A stretch of DNA of 64,000 bases from a virus (Duplodnaviria > Caudoviricetes): positions 1 to 64,000 of the IMG/VR virus record IMGVR_UViG_3300035520_001075, one strand, 5' to 3'. Every line of letters starts with the position of its first letter. Within the stretch, counting starts at the first letter, position 1. A program made the position numbers and the translations under genes. Shown here in pieces: positions 11,700 through 41,265 of this stretch. The notes beneath the pieces are model-generated. The model saw only the letters and a program-made list of their open reading frames with translations, ran no database searches and had not been told where the DNA came from.

Positions 11700-12430
11700 T
11701 GGGTTATTTTGAAGATGTATATTTAAAAAGAATGAATATAGACGGGCATACTCAGCAAGATAGAGTTAAAACAAGAAAGGAAAAAGAATTCGATAGACTT
11801 TTTTTAAAGAAAACAGAATATCAATGTCATCTTTGCTCTGTTAATGGGGAGGATAGAAACGATATTTGTTCTCTTCAACCCAACAGTTGGAATGAATCAA
11901 AGTTAGTAAGTAATCTCTTAATGTCAACTAAAGCCGCACCTCTAAAGACAGGAGATATTTTATAGATAAAACAACGAATTAAGGATAAAGAACAAGATAA
12001 AATTTGGCTTGTATTTTTCGTTGAAGATAATCTTACTAAAGGCTATCAACTTTTTAAGATAATTTGCTTAGATAGTGAGATTAATTTAACTAATGAATAT
12101 GGAGATACAGATATTGTAATTCCAGTTAAATTTGTTAGTGCAACCAGTAGCTTTATTACAGACCAATTTTCAATATCTTAGAGCAATTTGGGTTATAGAG
12201 AGCCTAATGCTAATAGGTCTTTTATTACTGCTGATTTTGATGCTTTGCAAAAAGGAAGATATTTAGAATATCAAGAAAGAGGATGGGAAATTATGGGAAA
12301 AGATACCATTAGTATTCCTAATGTTAGTTATACTTTTATTAGTGAAAAGTTGCTTGTGCCGCCAGAACTAAAAAGTTCAGAGGACATATTGGTTGGCCGC
12401 GATACTAATTTCTTTTTAAACGGTAGGTGA
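11699..12430 (+). CDS. putative head closure/neck protein, ~243 aa
   Basis: TAATG coupling to the previous gene; track ORFs 11693-11965 and 12188-12430 share a frame, separated only by TAG codons. Confidence 0.65.
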
Positions 12431-13687: not shown

Positions 13688-16600
13688 ATGGCAACACAGA
13701 ACCTTTTTGATAAATATGGTATTAAGGAAGTCGCTGACGTTACTTTTTATCGTATAGAGAAGAAAGAAGAAACATATGAATCTCAGAGAACCATTACTAT
13801 ATCTTCTATTTTAAAAGGTGCTATGGAACTTCAGACAGTTTATCCTTTAGAAAAAGGAAAAGGTTCAGAAGATGGTTTTGAGGCGTATGTGTTTACAGAT
13901 GCAGAACTCGTAACTGGAACTAACTATGACTGTGATGATGTTCTTGACATTAAAGAAGTTATAACAGGTACTTTTAAGTCTACAGAAAGAATTACAGATA
14001 AGTATATTACTAGCGAAAAGACTCTTAGCGAAATTACAGCAGATGAAGCTTTTGAGTTAGATGAACCAACATATTATGATGCAAAATCTGGTGCAGAAAT
14101 TTCTGACTTAGTTCTTTCAACATATTATGAAGAAATTAAATCAGATAATGCAGTAATTAAGATTAAATATTCTGATGAAGAGATTATTAGCACAACAACA
14201 GACTCAACATCTTCATCTGACTCGGATTTAGATACAGCAGATTTAAGTGATGAGGACGCTACAACAACAAATGAATATTCTTACACTATTACTATTTATG
14301 TTAGTGGTCTCACAGCAGATAGTAAGACTGATAAGACAACAGGTGTTTATGAAGATTCTAATGATTCTAAAGTTCCTGATGCAACAAGAGAAGTTGGTAC
14401 TCATGAATATACTTACGAAGAGCAGGTATTAATGCTTTTTGCTAAGAAACAGAATATTATTAGTAAGACTGGTGTTCGTTATCAGTTTGCTAATGCAGAT
14501 TCTATTTTTGGTGAAATTTCCTTTAATGACAGCTTTGCGGCCGCTCCAAATTCAACAGAAAAAATTGTTGTAATTGGCTTAGATGGCAAATTTACAGAAA
14601 GCACTTATGATGTTTCGGAAGTTATTGAAACAATTAAGAGCCTTACAGAAACATTTGAAGCAAAGGCTTATGACGTAGTTTATAACGACTATGCAGAGCT
14701 TGTTGTTGAAGATGAAATGGGATATTTCAATCCATATTTCCTTGGTAAGGATTATAATAAGAGCACTAAGACAATCAGCCCATTTGTTGCTACTGCAAAG
14801 ATTGGTACAGAAACTGTTAAAGAAAAGTATATGGCTTGGGCAGTTAAAAATGCTGGTGTCGATAGAGCAATTGCTACTGCAGAAATGTGGGGTAATGATG
14901 AACATTATAGCATAAATGATGCTATAGATGCTCTTAAACAGAAGAAAAAGATTATAGATGTTGGCGAAGCAGACGGTGCAGCAGGCATTGAATCAATCTT
15001 CGGCGGCTATAAAGTTGTAGATAGCAATAATGAAAATGGTGCTATTCCTGCAATAGGCAAAGAAGATACAGATTATGCTGCAAAATATATCTATTCTGCA
15101 GAAGGGGTAGACGCTCCATTTGACGTGACAAGCCCTTCTGACAAATATCCACTTGACAACGTTATTGATGCAATTTCTGAAATTGCTTATGACGAAAATG
15201 CAATTGGAAAGGATATTAGAGTTGACGCTGTAAATAGTAAGAATATTACTACAGAAATCCAGTCTAATAGAGCAATCTATGTTAAAGTTGATGGTTCTGT
15301 TGATACAGCCGCTGGTGCTTATATCTATCTTCTTCATAATAAGAATTATAAGAAACTCACTTCTGATTCAGAAGGCGTATTCTCATTTGAAGATAAGAAA
15401 GGCAACACACTTTATTATCAGGACAAAATCTTCAAGGGCATTGAATATCTTGCACTCGTTATAATTGGCAACAAGGGTCTTATCTTTGTTGTAAATAGAC
15501 ATGGCAAGAGTGATACAAAGAAGATTGCTTGGATGATTAATGAAAATGGCTATGTTTCAGACACAAGAACAGCAACACTTGTAAAGAAAGGTCTTATCCA
15601 TACAACAGATATAACTGCAAATGACGAAACATTTGAAGCTACTTGTACAGTTAAGAGCCTCGGTGTTCATAGGGTCACTAAGAAAACAAACCACTATATT
15701 CCAGTTCTCTTCCTTGACACATTAAAGATTTCTACAATTGAACAGACTGCTGAAGAAGTTTATGCTACAGGCGGCCGCGGCAATGCAAATCTTATTGGTT
15801 GGGATTATGGTAAGGAAATCACAGTAAGTCTTGAAGATGCTCTCTTTACTCCTGCTTCAATGAGTGCTATGTTTGGTAGCTACGAAGGTAATGACTTCCG
15901 TAAGGGCGTAAAGGAAACAAAGTCTATTGATAGAATGGAAAAAGTGACTGCCAAGAGAAGCTTCATTGTTCCTGCTGGTAATAGTAATGGAACTCCAACA
16001 GAAGCAGATAAAACAGCACAGGCTGTATTCTATGACCCTAATACAATGGAACCATATGCAGATGGTACTCCGATTGCAGAAGGAGAAATTTTCTACAAGT
16101 TTACTCGTTCTATTGCTTATGACGGACAGTCAATTGGTCATACAATTGAAATCTCAGCAGATAAGTTCCCAGGTACTTATAAGATAGTAGGTGATACTTT
16201 CGTTCGTTCTAAGGAAACTGGTGAAGATGAGAGATTCCAGTTTGTTATCCCTCAGTTTAAGGTTGGTTCAGAAAATACAATTACACTTGAAGCAGATGGA
16301 GACCCAGCGGTAAACAGTCTCAGAGCAAATGCCGCTGTAAAAATTGCTTAATTGCTGGAAACCCCTTAGAGCCAATTAAACTACAACGTAATTTATAATA
16401 AGCGTGAATGTTAAAAAATTAATTGGATTGGGCAATCAGCAGCCAGAATTTAAAATAAATTGGGTTCTGGTTCAACGACTATCGGTGATGAATGTAGCCG
16501 AGTAGATTTAAAAAAAATAAATCGAAATAGCAATCATAGAAATATGAAGATATAGTCTCAACTTTAATGAAAGTTAAAGAGTGATTTAATAAATCACGTA

Positions 16601-24092: not shown

Positions 24093-26588
24093 ATGCCAGT
24101 TTCTAATAATTTAGTTCAAGAAGCGAAAGAAGATAAATTAATAGCTTATTTTATAGGCCTTGCGAAGAAAAGTTTTGAGCAGGAAAAAAAATTCTATTCA
24201 ATAGTGGGGATTGAAAAGAGTGAGAATATGCCTCAATCTTTAGTAGATGAGTATGAAAAATTAACAAATAAAGATTCTTTTAAAAAATATCAGGATAATC
24301 TTGCAGATACTGTGTATGGAAAAGACACTCATTTTATAAAATATTTTTATGATGAAAAATTTATAAGTGCTCTAAGTGGAAAAGCAGCATCGGTCGATTC
24401 TGTTTTAAATAATCTTGAAAAAGATTTGGCAGCATATGCAATAGCTATGTCAGGAGAATAGACTGATATAACAGTAGTTGGAGAAAAAACCTCTTTAGAA
24501 AAAAGTATAACTATTTATTATTTATTTGGGACAGATAAAGATGAAAAAAGCATTGAAATTTCAGGAAAAACTTTAGAAGATAAATTTGAATAGAAAAAAA
24601 AGGCTATTAAGCCATAGGAATTAAAGACTTTTATTGCTGAATAGATAATGGAAAAAGAAGGAAATGTAAAATCAAGAGTTAACCTTAATCCTAGCAACAA
24701 AGAAATTATTCCAAATTTACTAAACGCTATTAATAATTTTATATTAGGATTAAAAGAAACTTCGGGAGAAGTCACGCAGAAAGGAAGAGGATATTATATT
24801 ACAAGAAATATTGAATTTGGCAATAAAATTGGAATTTCTTTAGGTGAAGCCTTATTTGGAAGCTATGGAGAACCCTTACCAGAAACTATAGATGAAGCTT
24901 TTAAAATTAAAGGAGGTCGAAACTTACTTAAAAACAAAGACATGCCAACATATTCTCAAATTTTAAATGATCCTAAAAAAAGTGTCGCTAATGATATAGT
25001 AAGGGCTTTAAATGATACTCTATTGCGTGAAAATGTTATTTAGAGTTTGAGTGAGACTGAAATTAATACAAAAATGGCACTCCTTATTCGATATTTAATA
25101 GAAGGGATGTTTACGAATGGAAAAGCAAATATTTCTATTGAGGGTGCTGTAAGTAGTAATAATAAAAATTACAGAAAAAAAAATGAGATTAAAATGTTTG
25201 AACTTAATTTTGGCTCTCCTAATTTAGAAGAAATTCTTAAGGAAGGAGAATATACAATTAAACTTCGCGGTGGAGAAGAAATGTTTAAAACATTGTTTTC
25301 TGGAAGTTTTAAAACCGAACTTGCACGGCAATTAAAAACTGAACAAGTTAGCGGAGAGAAAAATCAATTAATTTGTGGTGTAAAAATTATTGCAGAAGAT
25401 AAAAATTTATTTTTTAATAAAATTGATAATTCTATTAATATAGACAACTATAAAAAAGAGGTAATAACTAATAAAAAAAAGAAAGGAATAGATGATTCTG
25501 CTAAATTAGAAAAAGATGCTGAAGAAGTTTCAGCAGCTTTTTCTATGGTTATTAGTTCCGTTATTGGTGAGATAGGTAGTGCAGAAGATTCTGAATTATT
25601 TCAGAAGTGGTGGGGGACAGAAGGCAAAAATGATATGTCCTCAGCACTTAAACAATTAATTATTAATAATCCAACTTAGATTTATGAAATATTAAGTAAA
25701 AAAGATAAGAAACAAGTGGCAGGTATGATAGGAGAAACAGTTTTTGGAGCTATAGTGATGAGAAAAATGAAAAATAGTGGCGACCCAATTGTTTAGATGC
25801 TTGGACAGACAAGCCATGGAAACGGGGAAGCTGCTGTAGATTTAAATATAGTAGATGTAAAAGCATTAGAAAATAGTGGTCAGCTGTTCACATCAGACAA
25901 ATTGGATTCAGAAGTTTTAAAAAAGAAAAGATTAACTTCTGTTGGTTTTCAAATTAAAAACTATACTTCTGCAGGAGAGAATAGTGAAATTTTATATAGA
26001 ACAACAAACAAATTATTGAGTGATACCTCAACTATGAAAAGATATTTATAGGATACTTTTTTAGGATATATTCAAGAATAGCTTACTTAGGATAATGAAG
26101 TATTTTTTTAGGGTGGAACGAAGGATGAATAGGACAAGGAATTAAAAAAAATTGGAAATATTTTAGCTTATCATATTCCATATTTCATGAGATACGATGA
26201 GGCTCAAATGGAGCAAAATACTTTTGGAATAGAACAAAATAATTTCTATATAGTTAATTTTAAGTTTGTTCCCTCTTCAATGCTATTTTTTTTGATGGCT
26301 AAAAGTATCGCAATAGAAAAAGATAAAGTTCCTTTAGGAGAACAATATTTTTATTTTTCAGCTTATGAAAACAAGTCCGAAAGAAACGCAAGGCATGAAT
26401 AGGGAATAGACAAAAACAATAATAGAAATTTTTTACCTTCTTACTATAATTTTAGAGATTCCTTTAAAACCCCCCAGAGTGACAATTTAGTTAGTTGGCA
26501 TCATGATAGACTTGCTATTAATTTTACTGGAGTAAAAGTTAATTTTGGCAAGGAATTTGATAAAATTGTGAATAAAACAACGAGGTGA
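24093..26588 (+). CDS. hypothetical protein, ~831 aa with 13 internal TAG
   Basis: RBS GGAGGTG, ATG 24093; five track ORFs (24072, 24648, 25047, 25797, 26187) share one frame, separated only by TAG; ends TGA 26586-26588. Confidence 0.8.
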
Positions 26589-26913
26589 ATTAATTGGTAG
26601 ATAAAATTTTTCTATAAAAAAATAATTTTGATGTGAGTAATGTATTTAATTCTTTAAAAAGGTTCTTTAAGTTATGTTATAGGCTGGCAACAAATAGCAT
26701 ATTTACCCAAATAAATAAAAATATTATTTCAGCAGATAAAAAGGTGCAAGAATTTCTTACTCATATGTAAAAAAATTTTTCAAAGTAAGTTTCACAATGT
26801 TCTAATAAATGATTTAAGAATTTTAATATAAGGATTATTACAATCAAAATTAATTTAGCCAATTAAATTAATGTTTTAATATAAAAAATTAATTATAGAG
26901 GTGAATGGAATAA

Positions 26914-29900
26914 ATGGCAAGTAATAAAAAAACCTTCTATATCGAAGGTAAAGCAGATTTTAGCGACATCATCAACAAATTTAAGCAAGTTCGCCAACAA
27001 CTGCAACAAAAAGGAGCATCAACATCTGACCTCCTTAACATTGATAAGCAAATCCAAAAAATTGAACAGCTTCAAACTGCATTAAAAGCAGCCGTTCAAA
27101 AAGGATTTACTTCCACTTCTGATGTAAATAGTTTCCAAAAAAGTCTTGAAAAAATGAAGCAATTAGCTTCTGAATTGGGAATTAATCTTGGTGATATTGA
27201 CACAAAAACAATTACACAAGGGATAGAATCTGCAGAGAAAGCTATTACAAAAGCAGAAAAAGAATTTAAAGCTTTAAAAAACGAGCAATCAGAAGTTATA
27301 AAAAGTTCTTTAAATCTTTCCTCTAACAGCAAAAAATATGTTCAAACTTTAACTAATGCTGCAAATGAGGGTAAAGATGTTAAAAAGGTTCAAGAACAAA
27401 TTACTGATGAAATTCAAAGTCAAATTGACAAGCAGAAAGAATTAAAAAATCAAGCGGAAAGTGAAAAATCTCAAAAAGAATCAGAAAGAAGTAATCTTGG
27501 CTCGATGAAAGGGTTAAGCAAGAGAAGCTTTAAAACAACAACTGCTTCTGGAAAAGAAAAAAATATATCTGATGACCAAATGTCTCTTGTCGCAGCAGAA
27601 TACAAAAGAATTGCAAATAATTCAAAAGATGCTGGTACGGCAATGGTTAAATTCAAAAAATACCTGTCTGAAAATAATATCACAATGGCTAATGCTAACA
27701 CTATAGAAAAGCATATGGGTCAAAGTATTGATGAAGTTCAGACCAAATATAAAACTTTAACATCTGATATTAAAAATGCAGAAGCTGAAATTAAAAGTTA
27801 TGATAAGCGAATTGAAGATTTAACAGAAGACCAAAAAACTTTAGGTTCTTCTGCAACTAATGCCATAGTAAGTGGTGCTGCAGCAAAAATAGCAGAAGGA
27901 GAAACAAATAGAAATAATAAAGTTTCTGCAGCTGCTCAGCAAGGAACTCAATTGCAAATGCCATCAACAATTCCTGTTGATGTGGACGAAGCAGTACAAA
28001 ATGTTCAGGCTTTAACTGGTGCATTACAAGAAGAAGGCATTCAAACTAACGAAAACATTGATAAGCAAGAGAAGTTTAATCAAAAGCTAGAAGACATAAA
28101 GAGTCGTATTCAGTATTTCTTCTCTCTTGGAAATGCAATGTAGACTATCAGAACACAACTGCAGAAAACATATGAAGAAACGAAGCAATTGGATAGTGCT
28201 TTTGCTTCAATTGCAATGGTAACTGATTATGATGTTAATGATATGTGGAGCAGTTATGGAACTTATGCTGATATGGCTCAGGAGCTTGGACAGAAAACAA
28301 AAGACGTTGTTGAAGCGTCTGCTTTGTTCTATCAGCAGGGTTTGGAAACCAATGAAGTATTGTCATTAACAGAAGACACTATGAAACTTGCTACTTTAGC
28401 AGGTCTTGATTTTAGTACTGCAACTTCTGAAATGACGGCGGCTTAATAAAGCGTAAGGTCGCTTAAAAATATTTTAATTGCTGGAAACTCTTAAAATTCA
28501 AATGCTTTTTATTTTTCCTCAAAATAAAAAGAACGAAAGTAGAAATAAGTTTTGAAGTGGTACATGGTATTTTACCTAAATACTAAAAATAGACAATCAG
28601 CAGCCAAGGAGGAAATATAATATGGAAAATTTTAACATGAAAATGGAAGAATATGAAGAAAGAATAAGAGAAATCTTTCCGCATTGGGAATATAAAACTT
28701 TTAAAATTCTAATTATATTGAACTCAAGGTTCAACGACTATCTCAATAGAGAGTAAATTTAAATAAATTGAAACGGATATGAAAAAGATATAGTCTAAAC
28801 TTTATAGAAATGTAAAGATGAAATAACTCATTAGGAAGTAATGAACCTAATGGAATGAAATGCTACGCGGCTTTAAAATGGAAATGGAAGAAGGCTCTCA
28901 CGTAACTGACGTTTATTCTGAACTTGCTGCTAATGCGGCGGCTTCTGTTGAGGATATAGCGTATGCTATGAGTAAGACAGCATCAATCGGTGCTTAAAAT
29001 ATTGAATTGCTGGAACGTTCTAATGACTATTACACCTTAATGGTTATGAAAGTAGAAAAAAGTAATAGTATGGTATATGGAGTTGCTAACCTAAGTACTA
29101 AATAATGAATAATCAGCAGCTAAGAGTTTAAGATAAAGGAGAAATAATTATGTATGATTTTATAGAAACTTTAAAAAGAGTATTTAATAAAAATAATATA
29201 GAGATTTTAGAATTTAATGGAGAAAAATCTTCTATAAAATATAAATGTACTAAGTGCGGCGAAAACTACAATTATAAAAATGCAAGAAATTTATTTACTA
29301 AAATAACATTATGCCCTAAGTGTTATAAACCATATTCAAGATGGAACAAAGACAGACTACAAGAGCGATTAGAACTATTATTTCCAAACTCAGATTTTAC
29401 TCTATTAAATTATCAAGGCCAAAGAAAACCTTGTAAAATTAAATGTAATAAGTGCGGCAAGATTGAAGTAATTAATAATATCGAAGCTGTAATGATAGGA
29501 AGGAAAGAATTCTTTTGCGGCAATTGTGAAAAAGATAAAAATAAAATCTATGCTCATGTACAAGAAGAATTAAAAAAAGGTTATCTTGAATTGTTAGAAT
29601 GGAAAGGAGTTAATAACTATTCTAAATTCAAATGTAAAAGATGCGGCAACATTTTTGAGAAGAAAGTTCGAGGAAACTTTGATGGGAAAATATGTCCTAA
29701 TTGTTTTAAAATTCATAATAAATTTGATTTTGCAGAAGGTCAAGAACTTTTGAATCAAGTTGGAAATTGTGAATATGAATTACTATAGTTTACTGGAACA
29801 AAGAATAAATCTTTAATAAAGCACAAATGTGGATTTATTTTTTCTAAAAGAATTTTTGAGCTTGGAAGAGGTTGTCCAAAATGCCGCAGAAAAGTAAATA

Positions 29901-32900
29901 AAAAAGTATTGTCTAGCTAACAATATAATCTAAATTAAAACCTTATAAAATTAAAAACCTAAACTATCTTAAACTAAAGCTCAACGACTATCTCAATAGA
30001 GAGTAAATATTAAAAAGTAATATTGAAGTGATATTTGAAAAAGATATAGTCTAAAATGTCTAAAAATAGACATTTTTAATGCGATTGCAAACTCGGCTGG
30101 TATGAGCTTTGAAACAACATCGGCGTTCTTGACACAAATGATAGAAACGACGCAAGAGGCCCCTTGAAACCTTTCATGAGTCAGTCTCATGAATAAACTC
30201 AAATGCTTGACTTTTAGCCTCCTTTATGATATAATTATATTAATAGAAGAAATTCTATTAATATTTTATTAGAAAAAAGGAGTGTTGCGAAATGGATTTT
30301 GGATATATTTATTATTCAAAGAATGAAATTAATGGCAAAATGTACATAGGTAAGATTACCACAAGAAGCTTGCACTGGGAAAATGATTATAAAGGTAGTG
30401 GAACAGATTTACAAAAAGCACTAAAAGAATACGGTACAAAGAATTTTTCTATTCATTTTCTGGCGGCCGCACAAAGTAGTGAAGAATTAACCAGATTAGA
30501 AAAATACTATTTAACGTATTATAAGATTCCAAATGAGAAATTTTATAATAAAAACCTTGCAACTTCAAATAGCGGCCAGTCAAATTATTATAATAAAAAT
30601 AATCAAAAAGGAATAAATCTAAGAGATGTTGTTTGTTATAATTTGAAAGACGACTCTTTAACAATCTTTAACAATTTTACTGCTTTTTGTAAGGAACATA
30701 ATATGATAAGAGGAAACATTTTTAATGTTATCTCTGGACAGAGAATTACACATAAAGATTGTATATTTTGGTATAAAGATTATCCCCTTTCAGAAGATGG
30801 AATTAATTGGATTGTTAACTATAAAAATAAGACTAATTATAAAACAAAGTATATAAAAATTGATGAAGTCAAAGAAGAATTAAAAAGTAATTATAATTTA
30901 GCCAACAATAAAGATATAGATTTTAAATTTAATGGTTATTATATAGAAGACAATAAAGAACTGACGCTAAATTGGGAAGAAATAAATAGTGAGGAAATAG
31001 AAAGATTAATTGACAAAGAAGGAACTGCACCAAAAGAAGAAGAGACGATAGGAAAATTAGAGTTAAATAAAGAAATAGATAATAAATTTGAATTGCCAAG
31101 AGACAGCGAATTCGTAATTGTTGGCAATGGAAAAACTTTATACTTTAATTATGATGAAATAAATATTTTAACAAAACTATACACAGACATAAATCCAAGA
31201 ATTTTAAGACAAGCATTAAATCGAAAACAGAGAACAGTAATGAATAAACAATATTCAATCGTTTACTCATAAAATTTCAGGGTCTATAATAAGCAATTAT
31301 TATAGTAGAATATAATGAATTGACGAGAAAATCCTTAGAGCTCTTACTACTAAACCGTCTTAGTGATAGGGCGGCGGCAAGTCTAATCAGCTTGGTAAAG
31401 TAAAAAAGTAAGAGATTGGATAACTCGCAGCGAAGTTGCTTAGAATTCTAAGTAAAACGTCCAACGACTATCAGGATTGGCTCTGATAGGTATCAAGTGA
31501 TACCGAAGTATTATACTTCCTTTTTAGAGAAAAGGAAGAAGATATAGTCTATTCTATAGGGAAAGCCTATAGCAGTTTAATAAACGGGATGGAATAACGA
31601 ACCATCTGAATGGAAAGGAAAACATTGGTTTGCAAAAGGGCTAATGTAAAATCTATTTAATTGACGGGAACATCCTTAGAACTTTTAATACTTATAAGTA
31701 ATAAATTAAAAGATTGGACAATCCGCAGCCAAATTATTGGGATAATAAAAGGTTCAACGACTATCCTTAATAGGAGTAGAGTTAAATGGCTCGAAAAAAT
31801 AGACATTGTTTAATGACAATGAAGATATAGTCTTATCTTTATAGAAATGTAAAGAAGTAATAAAATTACTTAACAAAAAATAATGATTTTTGTTGAAAAT
31901 CAATGACTGCAATGAAGACCATTCAAGGTAGTGGTCTATAAATCTTCTTAATTGCTGGGAAGTCCTTAGTTTTTATTAAATTTTATAAAACATATAAAAA
32001 TAATAAAGCGGATAATCAGCAGCTAAATTCTTAGGTTTTGAAATAATTTTTCTAAAATTTTAAAGAAGAAGTTCAACGACTATTGGTGATGAATGTAGCC
32101 AAGTAAGATTACTTTAATCTGAAATAGAAGACAGCTTTATGCTGAAGATATAGTCTACTCCCCTTAGTAAATATCGGGAAACCGAGGGTAGAAAGGAATA
32201 GCCCGTTTTACAGAATTGTCTGAAAACGTCTCAGCAGAAGATTCTGAATTTGATGACTTAGACTACAATGATGTAGATACGGCATTAAAATCTGTAGGTA
32301 TCTCATTAAAAGATGCCACAGGACAATTTAGGGATTTGGACGATGTATTTTTAGAGTTAAGCTCTAAATGGAGTACATTGGACCGTAATACCCAGCGTTA
32401 TCGGATACCATTCCATTTTTTAAATGTGTTTGTATCACAAGAAAAACATTTTTAAAATATTGACTTTAATAATATTTTGTGATATAATATTATTAGTAAA
32501 GGAAAATCTTTACTAAATATTATAGTTAGGAGTGATATGAAAATGGTTGAAGGAAAACCAGTTATAATTAATGGAAAGGAAACACAGTATTTTTTATTTA
32601 AGAATGGAGATTTATATAATGAAAATACGCATAGAATTGCACAAGGTGCAATAAATCAAGGGTATATAAGATTTACTCTTGAAATTGATGGAGAAACTAT
32701 AGGCATTTATAAACATCAATTAATGGCTCAATTATTTATTCCAAACCCTGAAAACAAACCTATTGTTCATCATAAAGATGGGTGTCCAAGAAATAATACC
32801 TTAGATAATTTAGAATGGGTAAGCCAAGAAGAAAATCTTAATAAAATTATTAATCCAGTTGAACATAAAATAACTGAAAAATTAACATTAGAAGAATTAG

Positions 32901-35900
32901 AAGAAGAAGAATGGAGACCTTTACAAAATAGTAAATACGAAGTATCAAATATGGGTAGAATTAAAAATTTACAAACTGGAAAAATAACTTTTGGTAGTAG
33001 GAATAAAAATAGTGGCTATATTAGGTGGACATATAATGATTTAAATGGAAATCGACAAGAAATTCAAGCTCATAGAGCTGTTTATATGGTTTTCCACCCA
33101 GATGAAAAAATCAATGTTATTAATCATATTGATTCTAATAGAGGTAATAATAGATTAAGTAATTTAGAGAATGTTTCTCAAAGAGAGAATGTTATAAAAA
33201 GTTATTATCAAACAAAAACAAAACAGACAAAACTAACTGGACAATATGATTTAGAGATGAATTTAATTCAAGTTTTTCCTAGTACCTCAGAAGCTGCAAA
33301 AAATATTGGATTAAACAATTGTTCAAATCTCTCTCGTGCGATGAAAACTGGCGGCATTAGCCATGGTTATTATTGGAGGGAAATTTCAAAAGCAGAATAT
33401 GATGAATTCTTAAATAAAAAATAATAAAGCTAGGTAACGTAACCCATTGAATTGCGGGAATCTCCTTTAAAATAACACAACCAAACAATTCTAAGAATTG
33501 CGGCGAAGGTAATGACTAAGGTATGGTAATATCGTGTTATTTTGGACAATCCGCAGCGAACTTATTTACTTTTTAGTGAATAAAGCGTTCAACGACTATC
33601 GAAATTATAAGTAGAGTAGATTTTTGGAAATCGAAGTAGTGGGGAGTTAGTTATTAACTCATGATATAGTCTAGCTATTATTGAAAGATAATAGAAAAAC
33701 TGATAGCAACTACTGCGGCTTGACTTTAAACGGGTCGCATAAAATCTTTTGAATTGCGGGGACATAATTAAATTTTGAAATACTAAGCAGAAGCGGCGAT
33801 GGGTAATTCCAAAGGTATAGTAAAAAGTTTCAAAATATTATAATCCGCAGCGAATTTTTCTAATAGAAAAAACGTTCAACGACTATCGAAAGCAAATTGT
33901 AAGTAGAGTAGATTTTATAGAGTCGAAGTGGAAGACACTCTAAAAGAGTGAAGATATAGTCTAATATTTATTAATATAATAAATATAGGGTTCTCGTTAA
34001 AATGCTGGCGAAGTGTACAGCCTAAAAAAACACAATTCTTTCAAATGCTGGGACATCTTAAAGCCCATTATACCACAGCACAAAGAGAAATCTTAAATGC
34101 GAAGGTTCTAAAAAATAATGGGATTTATAGGATACTATAAAATAGACAATCAGCATCCAAGCACCGCCAAGGTGAAGGTTCACAGACTTAAAAGAGAATT
34201 ACTAATAGTAAATTATATAGTCGAGCTTTATTGAAAAATAAAAGGAAGTGATTTAATATGTATAAAACAATTATGATTAATGAGTAGATAACAGAATATT
34301 TAATTTTTGATGATGGGCGTTTATTTAATAAAAAGACAAATCATTATTTAAAAGGAAGCATTAGTTCAACTGGTTATAGAACTTATTAGCTAACAGTTAA
34401 GGGCAAATACTATAATATGCTTGCTCATAGATTAGTAGCGGAATATTTTTTAGACAATAAAAATAATTTGCCTTATGTTTATCATAAGGACGGTAATCGT
34501 CTTAATAATTATAAAAATAATTTAGAATGGGTTAGCTTTTCTGAAAATTCAATAGAAGCCTATGCGGCTGGCCGCAGAACGTCTCATGCTACTAAACAAT
34601 ATATTACAGAAGAAGAATTAGCTAATAAAGAATGGAGACAAATTGAACAAACTCAATATTATGTTTCTGAGTATGGAGATGTTTATAATTCTAATACGAA
34701 AGCAAAATTAAGACCAAAGAAAGATGGCTATTTACGCTATTCAATTTTTATTGATAATGAAATTAAAATAATTCCTGCTCATATTTTAGTTTATAAAGCT
34801 TTTGTTAATAAGGAAATTCATAATGAAATAGACCATATAGATGGTAATAAACTAAATAATCACTATACCAATTTAAGAGATATATCTCATTCTGAAAATA
34901 TGATTAATGCAATGAATAATGGTCATAGAAATAAAATAGCGGTAGAGCAAATTGATGAGAATGGAAATATTGTTAAAATTTTCCCATCTATAGCTGCCGC
35001 CGCAAAAGAAATGAAATGCCAACCTGCTCTAATAAGAAGGGCAATAAAAAACAAAAACAAAACTCATAATTACTATTGGAAAAAACATATTAAATAATCT
35101 ACTTGCAGCAGAGTAGATTCTTAGCTTAAAATTTAAGGCTACAATATTTGAATTGCTGGAAACTCCTTAGAGCCTAATAAACTACAACATAAAAAGAAAT
35201 TTTAAGTGTGATAGTTTAAAAATTATTAGGATTGGACAATCAGCAGCCAAGCATCGTTAAGATGAAGGTTCAACGGTCATTACGTAGGAATAAGCATTCC
35301 GAAGCGGAGAATTTCTGGAAAGATAAGATATGACCTTTTCTTATAGGAAACTATAAGCCATATTGGAAAGTTATTTAGCGAATAGCTTTAAAAATAAAAG
35401 TTAATGGAAGATTACGATAGAACAGTGGAACTTGTTGAAACAGCACAAGATTCTACTGGTAAATCCTCTGAACAATTTGCAAAATATCAAGATACACTCG
35501 AAAATAAAGTTAATAAATTAAACGTTGCCTGGGAAAAATTAAGGTAGAAATTTGTTAGCTCAGATATATTTAAGGGAGCTATTGAAAGTATTACAAAACT
35601 TGTTGATAAATTAAATAGCTTTAGTATTGCGGATTTTGCAGCATTGGGAACTGTATTTGTTACACTTGGCAATACTGCTGCAGAATCTTTTTTAAATGGA
35701 TTTCGTTCTACTCTAAAAGGAGTCGGACAAATAACAACCATGATGTCAGAAAAGTTTACTTTACAAGCCTTTCCTGAATTTAGTAAAAATTCAAAAGAAA
35801 AATTACAAAAAGAACTTGAAAAAAGTAATAATTGGGTAGAAAGAGCAACATCTAATTTGGAAGCTAATAAAACAGCAAGGTCCGAAAATTATAGTCTTTT

Positions 35901-38900
35901 AAATTCTCTGAAACAAAAGTAGGTAAAAAATCTTGAAGAAGTTAAAAATTTGAAAAATTCTCAACTAATAAGTCTCATGCGTGGAGACAGTGATGAGGTA
36001 CTACAAAGAATTGAGAATAGTTTACAAGAAAAACAAAAAATAGGAGAACAAATAGGAGAAGATCTTCAAGCAACAGAACAAGAACAAGAGAAAATAAATT
36101 AGGCTATTGTAAAAGGAAAAAAGGATTTAGCTGAAGCAAAAGCAGACCAAAGTTTTAAGACTCAAAAACTACAAGATTCTGTAGTTGTAGATTCTACAGA
36201 ATTAGCTGAAACTGCAAAAAATTCTTTCGTTACTGCATTTACCACTGGTATTACAGTAGCTTTTGCAACTGAAAATCCTATTAAAGCAGGGCTTTCTGCG
36301 GCAGTGGCAGGGGCAGTAGCTTTCTTGCCTATTATTTTTAAAACAATAAAAACGTTAATGACAAAACAATCTTTGAGTTTGGGTCAAGCAGCTGCAAAAG
36401 CCTTTAATTCAGGATTGGGCCCTTATGCAATTATTGTCGTGGCTGTTGCTGCTGCTATAGCTGCAGTTGTAGCTGGAATAAAAAAATTACAATCAACCAT
36501 GGAAGCCAATTCTATTGGTGGCCGCATTAGTGCTCTTGAAGAAGATATTGATAATGCCACAGAATCTGCGACGAAGTTAAAAGAGGCTTTATCAAAAACA
36601 ACAGAAGAGAAAAAATCATTAGAAGAAATTAAAGAAACTTATAATGAGCTAAAAAATAAGCTAATTTTAACAGAAGAAGAGCAAGAAGAATATAATTCAA
36701 TGGTAGAGACTTTAAAAGAGAGTTATCCAGAATTAATTACTTACTATGATGAACAAAATAATAAAATTACAATTTCCAACTCTTTATTAGACGAACAAAT
36801 AGAAAAGGTTTCGGCATTACAAAAATTAGAATCTCAGCAAGTGTTAGCAGCGGATTATAAAACAGAAGGATTGCAAAATCAATATGATACGTTAAATGAA
36901 ATACTAAGCGGTTATTCTAAGTTTGGCTTTGATGCGACGTGGGCGACAGAAGATGACAATATATTTAAAGAATCTTCTTTTAATACTAACACTATAAGTA
37001 TGATTGATGAAGAAGGCTTATTAGATATTTATAATAAATATCTCAATAAAAGCACACCTGTTGTTTCAATGTCAGCGGAAGATAGGAACGCTGTTATAAA
37101 TGCAATACAATATGCCTTCTCAGGTGATTATGCTTATCTTTCAGGTATTTCAGACAATTATAAAGAAGGAGCACAAGCATTAGCTAATGCAGCAGAATCA
37201 GAAAGAGAAATCATAGATGGATTAAAGAATGACTTTGCGGAACTCTATAGCTATGCTACCGATTATTATAGTACAAACTATTCTGATATGACAGAATCTG
37301 AGCAGGATATACGAGGGGCAATTGCCGCGGCATATATTGACAAGTTAAATGATATTGTTATTTCTGATAGTACCGATATGTAGGACGTATTGACATAGGT
37401 ATCGGAAATTCTTGGAGATTCAGGGATTGTAAATTTAGATTAGTTTGAAAACCAATTTACATCAGCATATGCCAGTCTTAAAAGTGGGTGGAAAGGAGCG
37501 AATACTTTAGCTTAGAACGATGCTTCTGCTAGGTCATTATTAGCTCTTTTGGGTATTACCACAGAACAAGAATATGCTGACCTTGGTATAAAAGATTGGG
37601 GTAATGATGATATTTTAGCTTATATGAATAGTAATTTTATTCCTTTATTATCAGAACAAATAACAGAAGCTTTAGGAGAAGTAGAAATAGATAGTAATGC
37701 ATTATCTGTAGCAAATGAACTTTTTACTGACGTAAACGAGATGTCAGCAGAAGAATATGCAAATGCTAAAAACACTTTATCTGAGGCATTAACCCAATAT
37801 GATGATATTGATATAGATACTGTTTTGGGAGCTCTTTTTGATTAGACTACAATTGATAATGCCGTAGAAAGTTTACAGGCCTATAATAACACGTAGGATT
37901 TTACCATTAGTAATTACACTACAATGGCATCTGCTTTAGCTAACTTACAAGACCGTTTCGGTTCTTTAGATGCATATGCACAAGACTCTTTCCAAGATTA
38001 TATTAATTTTATTCAAGGACAAAATTTATCAAGTGATGTCGCAAATGCATTATTTAATATTGATGTTTCTTCTTTTGATGGACAAACAAGAGAAGAAATA
38101 AAAGAGGCAATAATTGAACTAGTATCAAATGAAGACCTCGAAGGGGCATTGGGAGAGAAAGAAGCAAAAGCTTTTGCAGAGGGCTATATTAATGAATTAG
38201 AAACAGGAGCTTTGGCGGATTTTAGCATTACTTCTGTTGTTGGTTTTGAATCTGAAATTGATGATATAAAAGAATAGGCTAAAACTATTACAGATTCAAT
38301 GTCTTCTATTACTGATGCAATTACCAATTAGGCGGAAAAAGGATACATTACCGTTAGCAATTATGCTACTTTAGCAGAACAATTAAGCAGTTTAGACTTA
38401 GATGTAGATGATTATGTTTCTGTTAATGATAATGGAGATTATAGTTTAAATGCAGAGGCTTTAAGAGATGCTTATGCAGAACAACTTAATGATAAAGAAA
38501 ACTTAGTTGAATTGGCAAAAGAAGATTTACAAAACGGTATTGATGAATTAGATATTCAAATTCAAATCCTTGAAAGTATGCTCAACGGAGTTAATGCAGA
38601 AGATGCAAAGGGAGAAGCCATTGCTCGAAACAATAGACTTTATGCGGAACAATTAGCATTATAGGCTGGTCAAGACGTTGATACTTATTTAACAAATCAT
38701 AATATAAGTTTATCTGATGCACAAAGTTCGTTAACGACTGAACAAAAGAAAATAATACAAGATCAAATTGATTCCCTGTAGGCTCAAAAAACAGATATGG
38801 AAAATAAAAAGAATAACTTAACTGAGGATGAAGCAGAAAAGATAATATCTCCTTATTTAAATGACCTTTTACGTACATATACTGAGGCTTGGGATGATGG

Positions 38901-41265
38901 AGTAGAAAAAGCAGAAGACGCAGAAGATATTGAAGACGCTTTAGAAGCTATTGAAGAAGCAGAGCAAGATGTAATTGATAAAACAAAAGAACTTCAAGAA
39001 GCATATCAGGGCTCAGCTTGGTATGAGAGTGCAGTGGATTAGCTGTATAATTATACTACTGCTTTGGATTATGTTGCTGATAAAATTAGTGATTTTAAAG
39101 ATACTCTTGATGATTTAAGTGCTGATGATAATATTACTGAAAATTTAAATGGATATTTAGAGAATATTAAGAAATATAATACAATTTCAGAAGCAGAGAA
39201 AAAAGTTCTTGAACAAGCTAATCAGTCAATTATTGATGGACTTGACAATACTTTAACTAAAGAATTACAGGCTCTTAGCGAAAAATATAGTGATTATAAG
39301 ATTGATACAAATGTTTCTGATTATTATACTTATGATGAATATAGCGGAACTTATATGGTTAATAGTAATGCACTGGCCGCCGCCAAGATGTCAGATACCA
39401 TTAAGAAAGAAATCGAAACACAAGTTCAGCAGTTAAATAGTAATTTAAGTTCAATAAACGATATAAATGAAAATGTAAAGAAATATGAGTAGGAATTAGA
39501 AGATTTACAAGAAACAGCATTAAACAATCAAGTTGCTCTTGAAGATGAAGTAATTTCAACCTTAAAGCAAAAGTATCAAGAAGAAATTGATAATGCTAAA
39601 GATAAATATCAAGCATTAGAAGATGCTAATGATGAATATCTTGAAGCTTTACAAGATGCAATTCAGAAAGAAAGAGATTTAAGAAGTGAACAGGATAGTT
39701 GGGACGACTTAGCTAAGAAAGAAAAGAAACTGTCTTTAATTTCAAGAGATACTTCTGGGGCAAATCAATCTGATATTCAAAGTTTACAAGATGAAATTGA
39801 TAATGATAGACAAACATTATTAGATGATACTGTCGATAATATTCTTGAAACAATGAAAGAACAATATGAAACACAGAAAGAACAAAATGATACTCAAATA
39901 GAAATTCTTGAAAATCTTCATAGCGACGAAGCAATCACAAAAGAAGCTGTAAGTCTTATCGCAAGTTGGCAAACAACAGATGATATGATATTATGGATGA
40001 CTCAAAATTCAACAGAGTATGAAACTTGGTCTGATTCTAAATATCAGCAAATGGTTGAATCTTGGGAAAAAGAATTCCTAGCAAAACAAGCAGCAGATGA
40101 AATATTATAGACAGATTTATTATCTCAGACTAAGACAGACGCGGAAGAAATTGAACAAACATATGAAGCTTATGACCAAACAGCAACAACTCAGATAACA
40201 ACTGCTATTGGAGACGATATAGATACTGTTTCTACAGAAATTAGTGATGCTAAAAAGGCTTTAGAAGAGGCACAAAAAACATTAATAGAAAAGCAAGAAG
40301 CTTATAATGAATTAATAACTAATATTGATGAAAATGTTGCAGATATAGCAAACGGAAAAACAGCGGATAATGATAATAACGATAATAAAGATAATGATAC
40401 CGTTGCAGACGAAACAGCAGCATATTATAAGGAACAATATGATAAAAATGCTAATAATCCAGCTGCTCAAAGTGCTATAATTTCAACAGCTAAAAATAAT
40501 GGATATAATTTTTCTAATGGATTTTTTTATAAATCGTCTAGTATTTAGAATAATGACGATGATACTTCTAAACTAACAGAAGCCAAGGCATTATATACAC
40601 AATATTTAGCTAATGAAGGTAATGCTAATGCACAAACACAAATTGGTAATTTAATATCTAAAACTGGTTATACTGTTGAACAAATCAAAGAAACATATAA
40701 CAATTCAGGATTATCGTTGATAAATAAAGCAACAGTTTCAAGTGAAGATGCCGTAAAAGAAGGTCAGTGGTATTCTGTAAACACAGGAACAACTAATGAA
40801 TGGACTGAATACGGACAAGTTCTATGTGCAGACACCCAAACAGAGTTAGAACAAATTATACAACTCGGCAGAAAATAGGGCTATCTTGCTAATATAGAAT
40901 TTGCTATGACCCATAAAGGAACCGATGAACCTACATACTTTTTTAAATCAGGCGGCCTTGTTGACTACACTGGTCCAGCATGGGTAGATGGTACAAAAAC
41001 CAAGCCAGAAGCTTTCCTCTCAGCATCAGACACTCAACGTATAGGAGAAGCCGCAGAACTTCTTGCTAATATTCCAATACTCAACTCAACATCAACTTCA
41101 GCAACCAATCTTGCCACAAATGTTGGAGATACAACAATTGAAGTTCACATTAATATAGAAGAAATCTCATCAGATTACGATGTAGATTCAATGATTGATA
41201 GAGTTAAACAAGACATTGTAGATGTTTCTAATCCAATAGGAACACAAGTAATGTTGTCGAAATAA
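26914..41265 (+). CDS. tail tape measure protein, 10 exons, ~2626 aa after splicing and TAG read-through
   Basis: Exons 26914-28443, 28863-28983, 30082-30164, 31618-31629, 31906-31922, 32197-32401, 33703-33720, 33989-33997, 35106-35126, 35401-41265 (7881 nt, in frame). Joined core: EMTAA|LRGF...SKTAS|IANSAG...TQEAP|ENIG|TAMKTI|IARF...TQRY|IATTAA|GSR|QQSRFLA|LMEDYDRT, a TP901/PhageMin_Tail-type motif; C-terminal FKSGGLVDYTGPAWVDG. Confidence 0.92.
28444..28862 (+). mobile_element. group I intron TMP-1 (419 nt) with a degenerate ORF remnant
   Basis: P1 GCGGCU/GGUCGC (28457-28462); P10 GCGUA/UACGC; core AATTGCTGGAAA, AATCAGCAGCC, CAACGACTATC, AAGATATAGTC; terminal G 28862. Confidence 0.9.
28984..30081 (+). 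mobile_element. group I intron TMP-2 (1098 nt) with an ORF in the P6 region
   Basis: P1 AGCAU/GUGCU (28990-28994); perfect P10 CAAUCG/CGAUUG; core motifs flank the ORF; terminal G 30081. Confidence 0.92.
29150..29920 (+). CDS. intron-encoded Zn-ribbon repeat protein, ~256 aa (homing-endonuclease-derived, no catalytic motif recognised)
   Basis: RBS AAGGAG; repeated CxxC pairs (CTKC/CPKC, CNKC/CGNC, CKRC/CPNC, HKC/CPKC); TAG 29786 read through to TAA 29918-29920. Confidence 0.7.
30207..30235 (+). promoter_or_regulatory. intron-internal sigmaA-type promoter for the GIY-YIG ORF
   Basis: TTGACT-N17-TATAAT with extended -10 TG. Confidence 0.8.
30292..31272 (+). CDS. GIY-YIG homing endonuclease
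   Basis: N-terminal GYIY...KMYIG...YKGSG...LEKYY...FYN motif; lies inside intron TMP-3. Confidence 0.85.
   Translation: MDFGYIYYSKNEINGKMYIGKITTRSLHWENDYKGSGTDLQKALKEYGTKNFSIHFLAAAQSSEELTRLEKYYLTYYKIPNEKFYNKNLATSNSGQSNYYNKNNQKGINLRDVVCYNLKDDSLTIFNNFTAFCKEHNMIRGNIFNVISGQRITHKDCIFWYKDYPLSEDGINWIVNYKNKTNYKTKYIKIDEVKEELKSNYNLANNKDIDFKFNGYYIEDNKELTLNWEEINSEEIERLIDKEGTAPKEEETIGKLELNKEIDNKFELPRDSEFVIVGNGKTLYFNYDEINILTKLYTDINPRILRQALNRKQRTVMNKQYSIVYS
31630..31905 (+). mobile_element. group I intron TMP-4 (276 nt)
   Basis: P1 CAUUGGU/GCUAAUG (31640-31646); P10 UUGCA/UGCAA; core motifs present; terminal G 31905. Confidence 0.92.
31923..32196 (+). mobile_element. group I intron TMP-5 (274 nt)
   Basis: P1 AGACCAU/GUGGUCU (31931-31937); core motifs present; terminal G 32196; splits an Ile codon AT|A. 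Confidence 0.92.
32460..32488 (+). promoter_or_regulatory. intron-internal sigmaA-type promoter for the HNH ORF
   Basis: TTGACT-N17-TATAAT with extended -10 TG. Confidence 0.8.
32537..33424 (+). CDS. HNH homing endonuclease with two tandem HNH domains and a NUMOD-like C-terminus
   Basis: VHHKDGCPRNNTLDNLEW and INHIDSNRGNNRLSNLE; EEWR...YEVSNMGR (NUMOD4-like); FPSTSEAAK (NUMOD1-like). Confidence 0.88.
   Translation: MKMVEGKPVIINGKETQYFLFKNGDLYNENTHRIAQGAINQGYIRFTLEIDGETIGIYKHQLMAQLFIPNPENKPIVHHKDGCPRNNTLDNLEWVSQEENLNKIINPVEHKITEKLTLEELEEEEWRPLQNSKYEVSNMGRIKNLQTGKITFGSRNKNSGYIRWTYNDLNGNRQEIQAHRAVYMVFHPDEKINVINHIDSNRGNNRLSNLENVSQRENVIKSYYQTKTKQTKLTGQYDLEMNLIQVFPSTSEAAKNIGLNNCSNLSRAMKTGGISHGYYWREISKAEYDEFLNKK
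33721..33988 (+). mobile_element. group I intron TMP-7 (268 nt)
   Basis: P1 UGCGGCU/GGUCGCA (33733-33739); core motifs present; terminal G 33988. Confidence 0.9.
33998..35105 (+). mobile_element. group I intron TMP-8 (1108 nt) with an HNH ORF in the P9 region
   Basis: P1 UCGU/GCGA (34008-34011); P10 UGCUG/CAGCA; core AAATGCTGGGA, AATCAGCATCC, CACAGACT, TATAGTC lies before the ORF; terminal G 35105. Confidence 0.88.
34258..35097 (+). CDS. HNH homing endonuclease with tandem HNH domains, ~279 aa and 2 internal TAG
   Basis: RBS AAGGAAGTG, ATG 34258 in frame with track ORF 34417; AHRLVA...HKDGNRLNN and IDHIDGNKLNNHYTNL motifs. Confidence 0.85.
35127..35400 (+). mobile_element. group I intron TMP-9 (274 nt)
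   Basis: P1 UAGCU/GGCUA (35137-35141); P7 shows compensatory changes (GGTCA/TGACC instead of GACTA/TAGTC); terminal G 35400. Confidence 0.9.

Follow-up and report, generated by a model that had tools for sequence, protein, structure and literature searches.

How can two ribozymes recognize the same exon when that exon is only 9 to 21 nt long? This question is raised by a tape-measure-like gene (26914-41265, + strand) of a virus of the Caudoviricetes, which lies in the first 64 kb (the window) of the 157,483-bp record IMGVR_UViG_3300035520_001075, a genome with direct terminal repeats that is rated complete. Five such micro-exons stand between group I introns in this gene. A first-pass annotation had proposed that adjacent introns compete for the same few nucleotides, which could impose a splicing order or yield alternative isoforms of the tape-measure protein. 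Our results suggest that the micro-exons are probably coding remnants, left where mobile group I introns inserted independently of one another into the most conserved codons of the PF10145 domain, and that each intron can splice whatever the state of its neighbour.

The window has a G+C content of about 30%, and its late genes are broken by TAG when the standard code is used. When TAG is read as sense, the frames 26914-28446 and 35404-41265 are open, the second of which holds 18 TAGs; the whole gene contains 19 in frame. Among related contigs, L002 has TAG at the invariant glutamines of TTQEAP and NTQRY (11800-11815 and 13830-13845), and in L021, L027 and L029 it is the first Q of GSRQQSRF (about 7341-7352 in L021). 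These positions point to TAG being read as glutamine. No transfer RNA genes were found in the 64-kb window. With TAG as sense, the locus appears as the tail tape-measure gene of a gut-type phage, split by nine group I introns.

The exons were mapped with our own spliced-alignment program, in which introns were permitted only after T and had to end in G. A 317-residue stretch of the independent intronless homolog P0020 (2630 amino acids) was the query and 26001-37000 the target. Ten exons and all nine intron boundaries were obtained, in agreement with the boundaries set by eye; a 7-nt piece at 36707 was an end artefact. The spliced frame has 2626 codons plus the stop, and the long homologs have 2600-2664 residues. 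Exon 1 (26914..28443) has 510 codons with one in-frame TAG, its reading frame being taken under TAG as glutamine and its end from the alignment, and exon 10 (35401..41265) has 1954 codons plus the stop with 18 in-frame TAGs. Between them, exons 2 to 9 total only 486 nt, so that nine introns lie within 486 nt of coding sequence. The three larger ones are exon 2 (28863..28983, 121 nt), exon 3 (30082..30164, 83 nt) and exon 6 (32197..32401, 205 nt), all on the + strand like every feature of this array.

The remaining five are the micro-exons, which the alignment reproduced at the coordinates implied by the first-pass annotation. Exon 4 (31618..31629, 12 nt) encodes ENIG; exon 5 (31906..31922, 17 nt) encodes TAMKT plus 2 nt of the next isoleucine codon, the intronless junction being TAMKTIIARF in homologs; exon 7 (33703..33720, 18 nt) encodes IATTAA; exon 8 (33989..33997, 9 nt, GGTTCTCGT as annotated before) encodes GSR; and exon 9 (35106..35126, 21 nt) encodes QQSRFLA. 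The annotated region runs from the first base of the 12-nt exon (31618) to the last base of the 21-nt exon (35126). The 12-, 18-, 9- and 21-nt exons begin and end in phase 0, which bears out the statement that four of the five are codon-aligned multiples of three; the 17-nt exon ends in phase 2. A 17-nt version of exon 4 (reading QEARKENIG) was rejected, as homologs read QEAPENIG with no extra residue.

Every micro-exon follows an intron-final G and itself ends in T, and its residues are those expected from intronless homologs (ENIG, TAMKTI, IATTAA, GSR and QQSRFLA). Homologs run without a gap through TTQEAPENIGTAMKTIIARF...QRYIATIAAGSRQQSRFIAMM, and 23 long homologs do so through TTQE(A/S)(P/A)ENIGTAMKTIIARFTEL and QRYIATIAAGSRQQSRFIAMM(E/D)(D/N)Y. 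The corresponding junctions of the window, marked here by hyphens, read QEAP-ENIG-TAMKTI-IARF and QRY-IATTAA-GSR-QQSRFLA-LMEDY. The joined exons can also be found as continuous DNA. The relative L002 (76% identity in exon 1) is without introns 1, 4, 5 and 7, and carries SEMTAALRGF, GAAAACATTGGTACGGC and ATAGCAACTACGGCGGCCGGTTCTCGT uninterrupted; exon 7 is contiguous with exon 8 both there and in L008, which is also without intron 7. On this sequence evidence, the five micro-exons are real coding exons.

The introns themselves were compared with the Rfam group I family RF00028 at its gathering cut-off of 50 bits, with a second pass at a permissive threshold. Five introns scored above the cut-off, all between 31261 and 33982, and the permissive pass added two full-length matches at 33985-34243 (46.7 bits) and 35090-35357 (32.5 bits). 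Full-length alignments were thus obtained for 7/9 introns, with E-values from 2e-16 to 3e-5. Near-identical P4, P6 and P7 strands are common to all nine cores, and an exon-final U together with an intron-final G (omega G) is found in 9/9.

Intron 1 (28444..28862, 419 nt) has only the remnant of an open reading frame (ORF), and its ortholog in L019 gave a full-length Rfam match of 48.3 bits. Intron 2 (28984..30081, 1098 nt) carries an endonuclease ORF with one TAG (29150-29920). Intron 3 (30165..31617, 1453 nt; 62.3 bits over 31261-31572) has a homing-endonuclease ORF in its P1 loop (30292-31272). Introns 4 (31630..31905, 276 nt; 69.0 bits) and 5 (31923..32196, 274 nt; 57.1 bits) have no ORF. 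Intron 6 (32402..33702, 1301 nt; 54.0 bits over 33399-33693) has an HNH endonuclease ORF in its P1 loop (32537-33424). Intron 7 (33721..33988, 268 nt; 69.8 bits) is again without an ORF. Intron 8 (33998..35105, 1108 nt; under the cut-off) carries an HNH endonuclease ORF with two TAGs downstream of the core (34258-35097), and intron 9 (35127..35400, 274 nt; also under the cut-off) has none. All four ORFs match homing or HNH endonuclease families. Those of introns 2 and 3 match PHROG families only, HNH/endonuclease and homing endonuclease families respectively, the intron 3 ORF having no Pfam match. The intron 6 ORF matches Pfam HNH_3 (5e-18), NUMOD4 and NUMOD1, and the intron 8 ORF matches HNH_3 (3e-13).

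The large insertion of intron 1 contains a 44-codon ORF (28622-28756) without a family match, possibly what is left of an endonuclease gene. On the + strand, the two promoter-like sites with the best match (30207-30235 in intron 3 and 32460-32488 in intron 6) lie just upstream of endonuclease ORFs. They consist of TTGACT, a 17-nt spacer and TATAAT with TG, matching at 11/12 positions, and the total number of such sites was not above that in shuffled sequences.

Two helices connect each intron to its exons. P1 is formed between a guide in the intron and the end of the preceding exon; for P10, the bases directly 5' of the guide G were paired with the start of the next exon. A guide with G facing the splice-site U was found for eight introns (1, 2 and 4-9), whose P1 helices have 7, 5, 8, 7, 7, 7, 4 and 5 bp of contiguous pairing. 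Examples are GGCGGCU/GGUCGCU in intron 1, the guide GCUAAUGU at 31640-31647 in intron 4, AGACCAU/GUGGUCU in intron 5, the guide GUAACGU at 33434 in intron 6, UGCGGCU/GGUCGCA in intron 7 and UCGU/GCGA in intron 8. In intron 3, the guide AGGGUCU (31279-31285), which is contiguous with the P10 strand UUUC (31275-31278), can form a U-A and three G-C pairs or a 3-bp register with a G.U pair. P1 has 4-8 bp across the nine introns. The guide region of intron 3 lies at 31275-31285 in the window, 9619-9629 in L001 and about 12905-12915 in L002. Pairing in a shifted register of greater stability, AGGCCC/GGGUCU, leaves its splice site unpaired, and this intron may be a weak link of the array.

P10 helices of introns 1-9 have 5, 6, 4, 2, 2, 4, 3, 5 and 4 bp, that of intron 2 being CGAUUG/CAAUCG. 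Their mean length was 3.9 bp for the cognate pairs versus 1.25 bp for the 72 non-cognate combinations, only 2.8% of which reached 4 bp, and the observed cognate sum was reached by 0/20000 permutations. When the hairpins were folded alone, P1 was present in the minimum-energy structure for introns 4, 7, 8 and 9 and in the centroid for intron 5, and it was clearly better than shuffled sequences for introns 4 and 7 only (z -4.65 for intron 4). A P2 hairpin (34004-34021) that would bury the guide of intron 8 was dropped in favour of the alignment with intron 9.

The helices are also kept by compensatory changes in relatives, which were observed in P1 of introns 2, 5, 6, 7, 8 and 9 and in P10 of introns 1, 7 and 8. 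For P1, AGACCAU/GUGGUCU of intron 5 is AGACUAU/GUAGUCU in L019, CGUUAU/GUAACG of intron 6 is AGAUAU/GUAUCU in L008, a U-A pair of intron 7 is A-U in L023, UCUCGU/GCGAAG of intron 8 is UCCCGU/GCGGAG in L021, L027 and L029, UAGCU/GGCUA is found versus UCGCU/GGCGA in intron 9, and the change in intron 2 is seen in L002. For P10, GUU/AAC of intron 7 becomes GUAGU/AUUAC in L019, and CAGCA/UGCUG of intron 8 becomes UAGCA/UGCUA in L021, L027 and L029. The latter is the same CAG to TAG change at GSRQQSRF described above, paired with a compensatory change in the P10 strand of the intron. A consensus fold of five intron 9 orthologs contained 56 pairs; compensatory changes were seen in 8 of these, one of which belongs to P1, and the U.G pair was conserved in 5/5.

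Substantial non-adaptive skipping or mis-splicing, by which the array would cut the yield of correct messenger RNA and be tolerated as few copies of the tape-measure protein are needed per virion, is possible, although we lean against it. Tape-measure proteins are present at low copy number per virion. The near-identical P4, P6 and P7 strands of the cores, the non-canonical splice-site pair of intron 3 and the weak P1 of intron 8 favour such losses, and all three natural tandem group I systems named in the available parts of the reports (PMC10136302, PMC11878797) yielded skipped products. On the other hand, the cognate P10 helices should steer each intron to the correct 3' site. Adjacent introns are also only 62-73% identical, compared with a shuffle mean of 61-67% (the best pair, introns 6 and 7, reaching 73% versus 61%), unlike the pair in phage Twort, which the accessible text of PMC10136302 describes as highly similar. 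Of the traits of the Twort case, two group I introns around a short exon are found here (five exons of 9-21 nt) and highly similar flanking introns are not.

We then located P1 and P10 within each micro-exon. The 12-nt exon is fully tiled, with P10 of intron 3 on nucleotides 1-4 and P1 of intron 4 on nucleotides 5-12. The 9-nt exon is nearly so: P10 of intron 7 occupies nucleotides 2-4 and P1 of intron 8 nucleotides 6-9, leaving nucleotides 1 and 5 free. In the 18-nt exon P10 takes nucleotides 2-5 and P1 12-18, in the 21-nt exon 1-5 and 17-21, and in the 17-nt exon P1 takes 11-17 and P10 is only 2 bp, not above chance; the spacing between the two helices in these three exons is 6-11 nt. Relatives have 8-nt exons that are tiled exactly, 4+4 in L001 and 3+5 in L023. 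In no micro-exon do the two helices have a base in common. The earlier description of the pairings as abutting or overlapping in the 9-, 12-, 17- and 18-nt exons therefore holds for abutment in the 12-nt exon and almost in the 9-nt exon; overlap occurs nowhere, and the helices stand 6-11 nt apart in the 17- and 18-nt exons. Neighbouring introns do draw their recognition helices from the same micro-exon, but these helices tile or stand apart with zero shared bases, and the idea of ribozymes competing for the same few nucleotides was not supported.

Exact tiling of 8-, 8- and 12-nt exons, with none shorter, is the basis for a further reading, in which P10 plus P1 set a hard lower limit on exon size and two ribozymes hand over the micro-exon to each other. 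In that case the array would throttle production of the tail-length ruler kinetically or serve as a quality gate for it, and might protect the most conserved DNA from homing endonucleases of competing phages. We regard this combined proposal as doubtful.

An obligatory order, in which neighbours compete for micro-exon bases and one splices only after, or only before, the other, is improbable. It could draw on the 0-2 free bases between P10 and P1 in the 12- and 9-nt exons, and for a 1-nt exon flanked by two group II introns a ratchet of this kind has been proposed (PMC12308204, in the part of that source available). However, each P1 and P10 lies wholly inside its own micro-exon, none spans a neighbouring intron, and removal of the neighbour lengthens no helix. 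Since no base is shared and no helix reaches past or gains from a neighbour, pairing imposes no splicing order, and no pairing site has to be restored by the loss of a neighbouring intron. Nature has also separated the partners: intron 8 is present without intron 7 in L002, L008, L021, L027 and L029, intron 7 without intron 8 in L019 and L023, and intron 9 without intron 8 in L023. The part of the first-pass claim that concerned order was not supported as far as pairing goes. Some order could plausibly arise if two folded cores, each about 270 nt long, exclude one another sterically on a tether of 9-12 nt.

The distribution of introns among relatives was analyzed in 50 contigs, namely the window and L001-L051 minus the duplicates L007 and L010, some of which may still be the same phage. 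Introns in the PF10145 domain were found in 14/50 contigs at 18 called sites (codon.phase 57.0, 91.0, 131.1, 151.2, 159.0, 161.2, 162.1, 163.0, 166.0, 168.2, 170.1, 238.0, 244.0, 247.0, 249.0, 251.1, 254.0 and 254.2), and internal exons of 34 nt or less in 11/50. The window has the highest intron count (nine), with seven in L023. Rfam confirmed 17 intron matches in five of these loci; introns at 151.2 and 170.1 were not recognised by Rfam at E 0.01. Junctions at reference codons below 10 or above 270 were end artefacts and were dropped. All nine introns of the window fall inside PF10145 as placed by the intact homolog of L003, which matches the domain at residues 426-639 (E 3.9e-29); exon 1 of the window, submitted alone, matches positions 2-63 through its last 57 residues with 21.9 bits, the cut-off being 33.2.

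Intron 4 was found in the window only, among the 50 contigs. The same 21-nt exon between introns at the same two sites is present in L002, L008, L021, L027 and L029. An intron at site 247 always occurs with one at site 254 (6/6 contigs), and the site-254 intron occurs once alone. Introns with and without an ORF are found at the same site among relatives. According to the available parts of PMC2814812 and PMC3984707, mobile introns insert preferentially at conserved sites, and flanking DNA is co-converted during homing; therefore the ORF-less introns that lie 9-21 nt from an endonuclease-bearing one could travel along with it.

When 47 metagenome loci were subjected to spliced alignment, the only accepted exon shorter than 12 nt was in L059, which has the same intron pattern as L023. 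Apparent exons of 3 or 4 nt in L019/L056, L072 and L090 were artefacts, produced when the strict rule of a T before and a G at the end of each intron split one intron in two. Two cases in relatives do not follow this rule simply. For the site-166 intron (L001 10870-11264, L002 13265-13631 and L008 2965-3359), no pair of boundaries gives an exon-final U, an intron-final G, the correct frame and the consensus Met at the same time; the canonical solution turns Met into Asn, and no guide with a G.U pair was found for it. In the more distant relatives L072 (4229-5898) and L090 (4232-5867), one long intervening sequence interrupts the first Gln codon of QQSRF after its first base, and the 5' exon would end in C, not U.

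It is very improbable that in-frame skipping of the 9-, 12-, 18- or 21-nt exon gives tape-measure variants which the phage uses, as the first-pass annotation had considered. These four exons are phase-0 multiples of three, and skipping in tandem group I introns is known from Twort orf142, Coxiella 23S ribosomal RNA and a gene of phage SIOphi (PMC10136302, PMC11878797, within the portions consulted). The residues that would be skipped are nevertheless invariant. Among 63 homologs longer than 1500 residues, 47 matched the anchors and were scored, with the other 16 left unscored; the segment after QRY has 19 residues in 47/47, with A, T, A, A, G, S, R, Q, Q, S, R and F invariant. In the ENIG segment, G is found in 43/43 and E in 41/43 homologs. 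No scored homolog was without the micro-exon segments. Furthermore, the guides have only 0-2 bp of complementarity to the next-but-one exon, and the flanking introns are not near-identical. That the gene is decaying, with some introns no longer splicing and the micro-exons left as pseudogene relics, is scarcely credible: two introns below the Rfam cut-off, two matched only as fragments and the missing G.U pair of intron 3 could be read in this way, but the frame is kept over ten exons to a length (2626 codons) within that of the homologs, the U and G boundaries are found 9/9, the helices are kept by compensatory changes, and the record is a complete genome with terminal repeats.

Several points weigh against the interpretation that we favour. 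Introns 1 and 2 were matched by Rfam only as 3' fragments (28785-28815 and 30040-30071, E 0.14-0.54). Intron 3 is without a canonical G.U pair at the 5' splice site in the window, L001 and L008, with the guide being GGGGUCU, with G opposite the splice-site U, in L002. Intron 8 has a P1 of just 4 bp, with a hairpin that folds no better than shuffles (z -0.2), and introns 4 and 5 have P10 helices of 2 bp, a length expected by chance. Three exons could be tiled exactly by coincidence, as typical P10 and P1 lengths sum to 7-12 nt. The one RNA run used (with 7% of the sampled words, as assembled contigs only) gave ten contigs over intron cores only and no splice joints, for example at 31221-31408, 31436-31586 and 33455-33593. 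Steric exclusion and co-conversion, finally, are steps that we infer.

Near-identical RNA contigs (0-3 differences) cover the cores of introns 3 and 6 without any exon (31221-31586 and 33455-33593); these may come from excised introns that persist as stable RNA, from a relative or from carried-over DNA. A metagenome scan with exon 6 found no near-identical spliced contig, the best match having 84% identity.

Taken together, we propose the following model for the array. Group I introns would have repeatedly invaded the most conserved codons of the PF10145 domain, with the micro-exons as by-products. Each intron brings its own guide, which pairs with the last 4-8 nt of the preceding exon, and in most introns the guide region also pairs with the first 3-6 nt of the following exon. 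P10 and P1 of different introns tile the shortest exons end to end without a shared base, and by this pairing logic each intron can splice irrespective of the state of its neighbour. Two folded cores are presumably unable to dock together on a tether of 9-12 nt, so that neighbours would act in turn, in either order. P10 plus P1 would set the lower limit of viable exon size, 8 nt being the smallest seen. Occasional exon skipping would be a side reaction and no source of useful isoforms, and ORF-less introns may ride by co-conversion when a neighbouring endonuclease-encoding intron homes.

Introns of this type are not confined to the tape-measure gene. Other parts of the genome hold at least five further matches to group I introns (16249-16579 in the window, and 69657-69960, 70398-70682, 76648-76876 and 83856-84064 (minus strand) in G000), which brings the number to at least 14 in 157 kb. 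Many database homologs have only 500-620 residues and stop where intron 1 or 2 would lie or shortly beyond, which suggests that intron-split tape-measure genes of this family are widely mis-called as truncated proteins. Gene callers fragment the tape-measure protein and would miss all five micro-exons, and annotation of such genes should be treated with caution. The array also offers a series of natural substrates, each with two ribozymes, whose tethers are 9, 12, 17, 18 and 21 nt long; the relatives extend it by tether lengths of 8, 13, 22 and 34 nt and by forms in which one partner is absent. This series is suited to asking what core spacing splicing needs at minimum, whether P10 is needed for the choice of the 3' site, and where skipping sets in.

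Comparison with known systems, for which the sources were available in part and are cited to that extent, places the array among tandem group I introns. The closest case is orf142 of Staphylococcus phage Twort, which has three group I introns and a 23-nt exon that is sometimes skipped (Landthaler and Shub 1999, as cited in PMC10136302 and PMC11878797). Both are phage tail genes with tandem group I introns around a very short exon, and both raise the idea of interaction between neighbouring ribozymes. Twort has three introns and one such exon between highly similar flanks, whereas here there are nine introns and five exons of 9-21 nt between flanks that are not near-identical, as described from DNA. 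Coxiella 23S ribosomal RNA has tandem group I introns around a 34-nt exon with documented skipping (PMC10136302, PMC11878797). Genes of Bastillevirinae phages contain two or three group I introns; exon skipping in an SIOphi gene was seen by nanopore sequencing of complementary DNA, and rNDPL of phiNIT1 has a small extra exon (PMC11878797). They resemble the present gene in having several group I introns in one phage gene and a short internal exon. As far as that source describes, however, these introns colonised only nucleotide-metabolism and DNA-metabolism genes, such as those for polymerase, terminase and reductase, none with more than three introns, and here a tail gene holds nine.

A mechanistic frame for skipping is offered by engineered tandem Tetrahymena introns around a 24-nt exon, which skip through a joint large ribozyme or through stepwise use of the distal 5' splice site, and in which skipping is suppressed when the splice-site helices differ (PMC10136302). 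Those introns are artificial and identical, whereas P1, P10 and P3 are distinct for each intron here. Organellar mini-exons, under about 4 codons in mitochondrial genes and even 1-3 nt (PMC10352661, PMC12308204, PMC5436844), likewise arise as very short exons from dense intron insertion and are recognised through missing conserved residues, but their splicing is protein-assisted and the present case is in a phage genome. The ratchet at a 1-nt exon (PMC12308204) involves group II introns and a forced order, in contrast to the self-contained pairing sites found here. In the parts of the literature searched, the most group I introns reported for one phage gene was three (PMC11878797), and the present gene has nine in 486 coding bases with exons down to 9 nt. 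The array is best read as a new extreme of a known kind.

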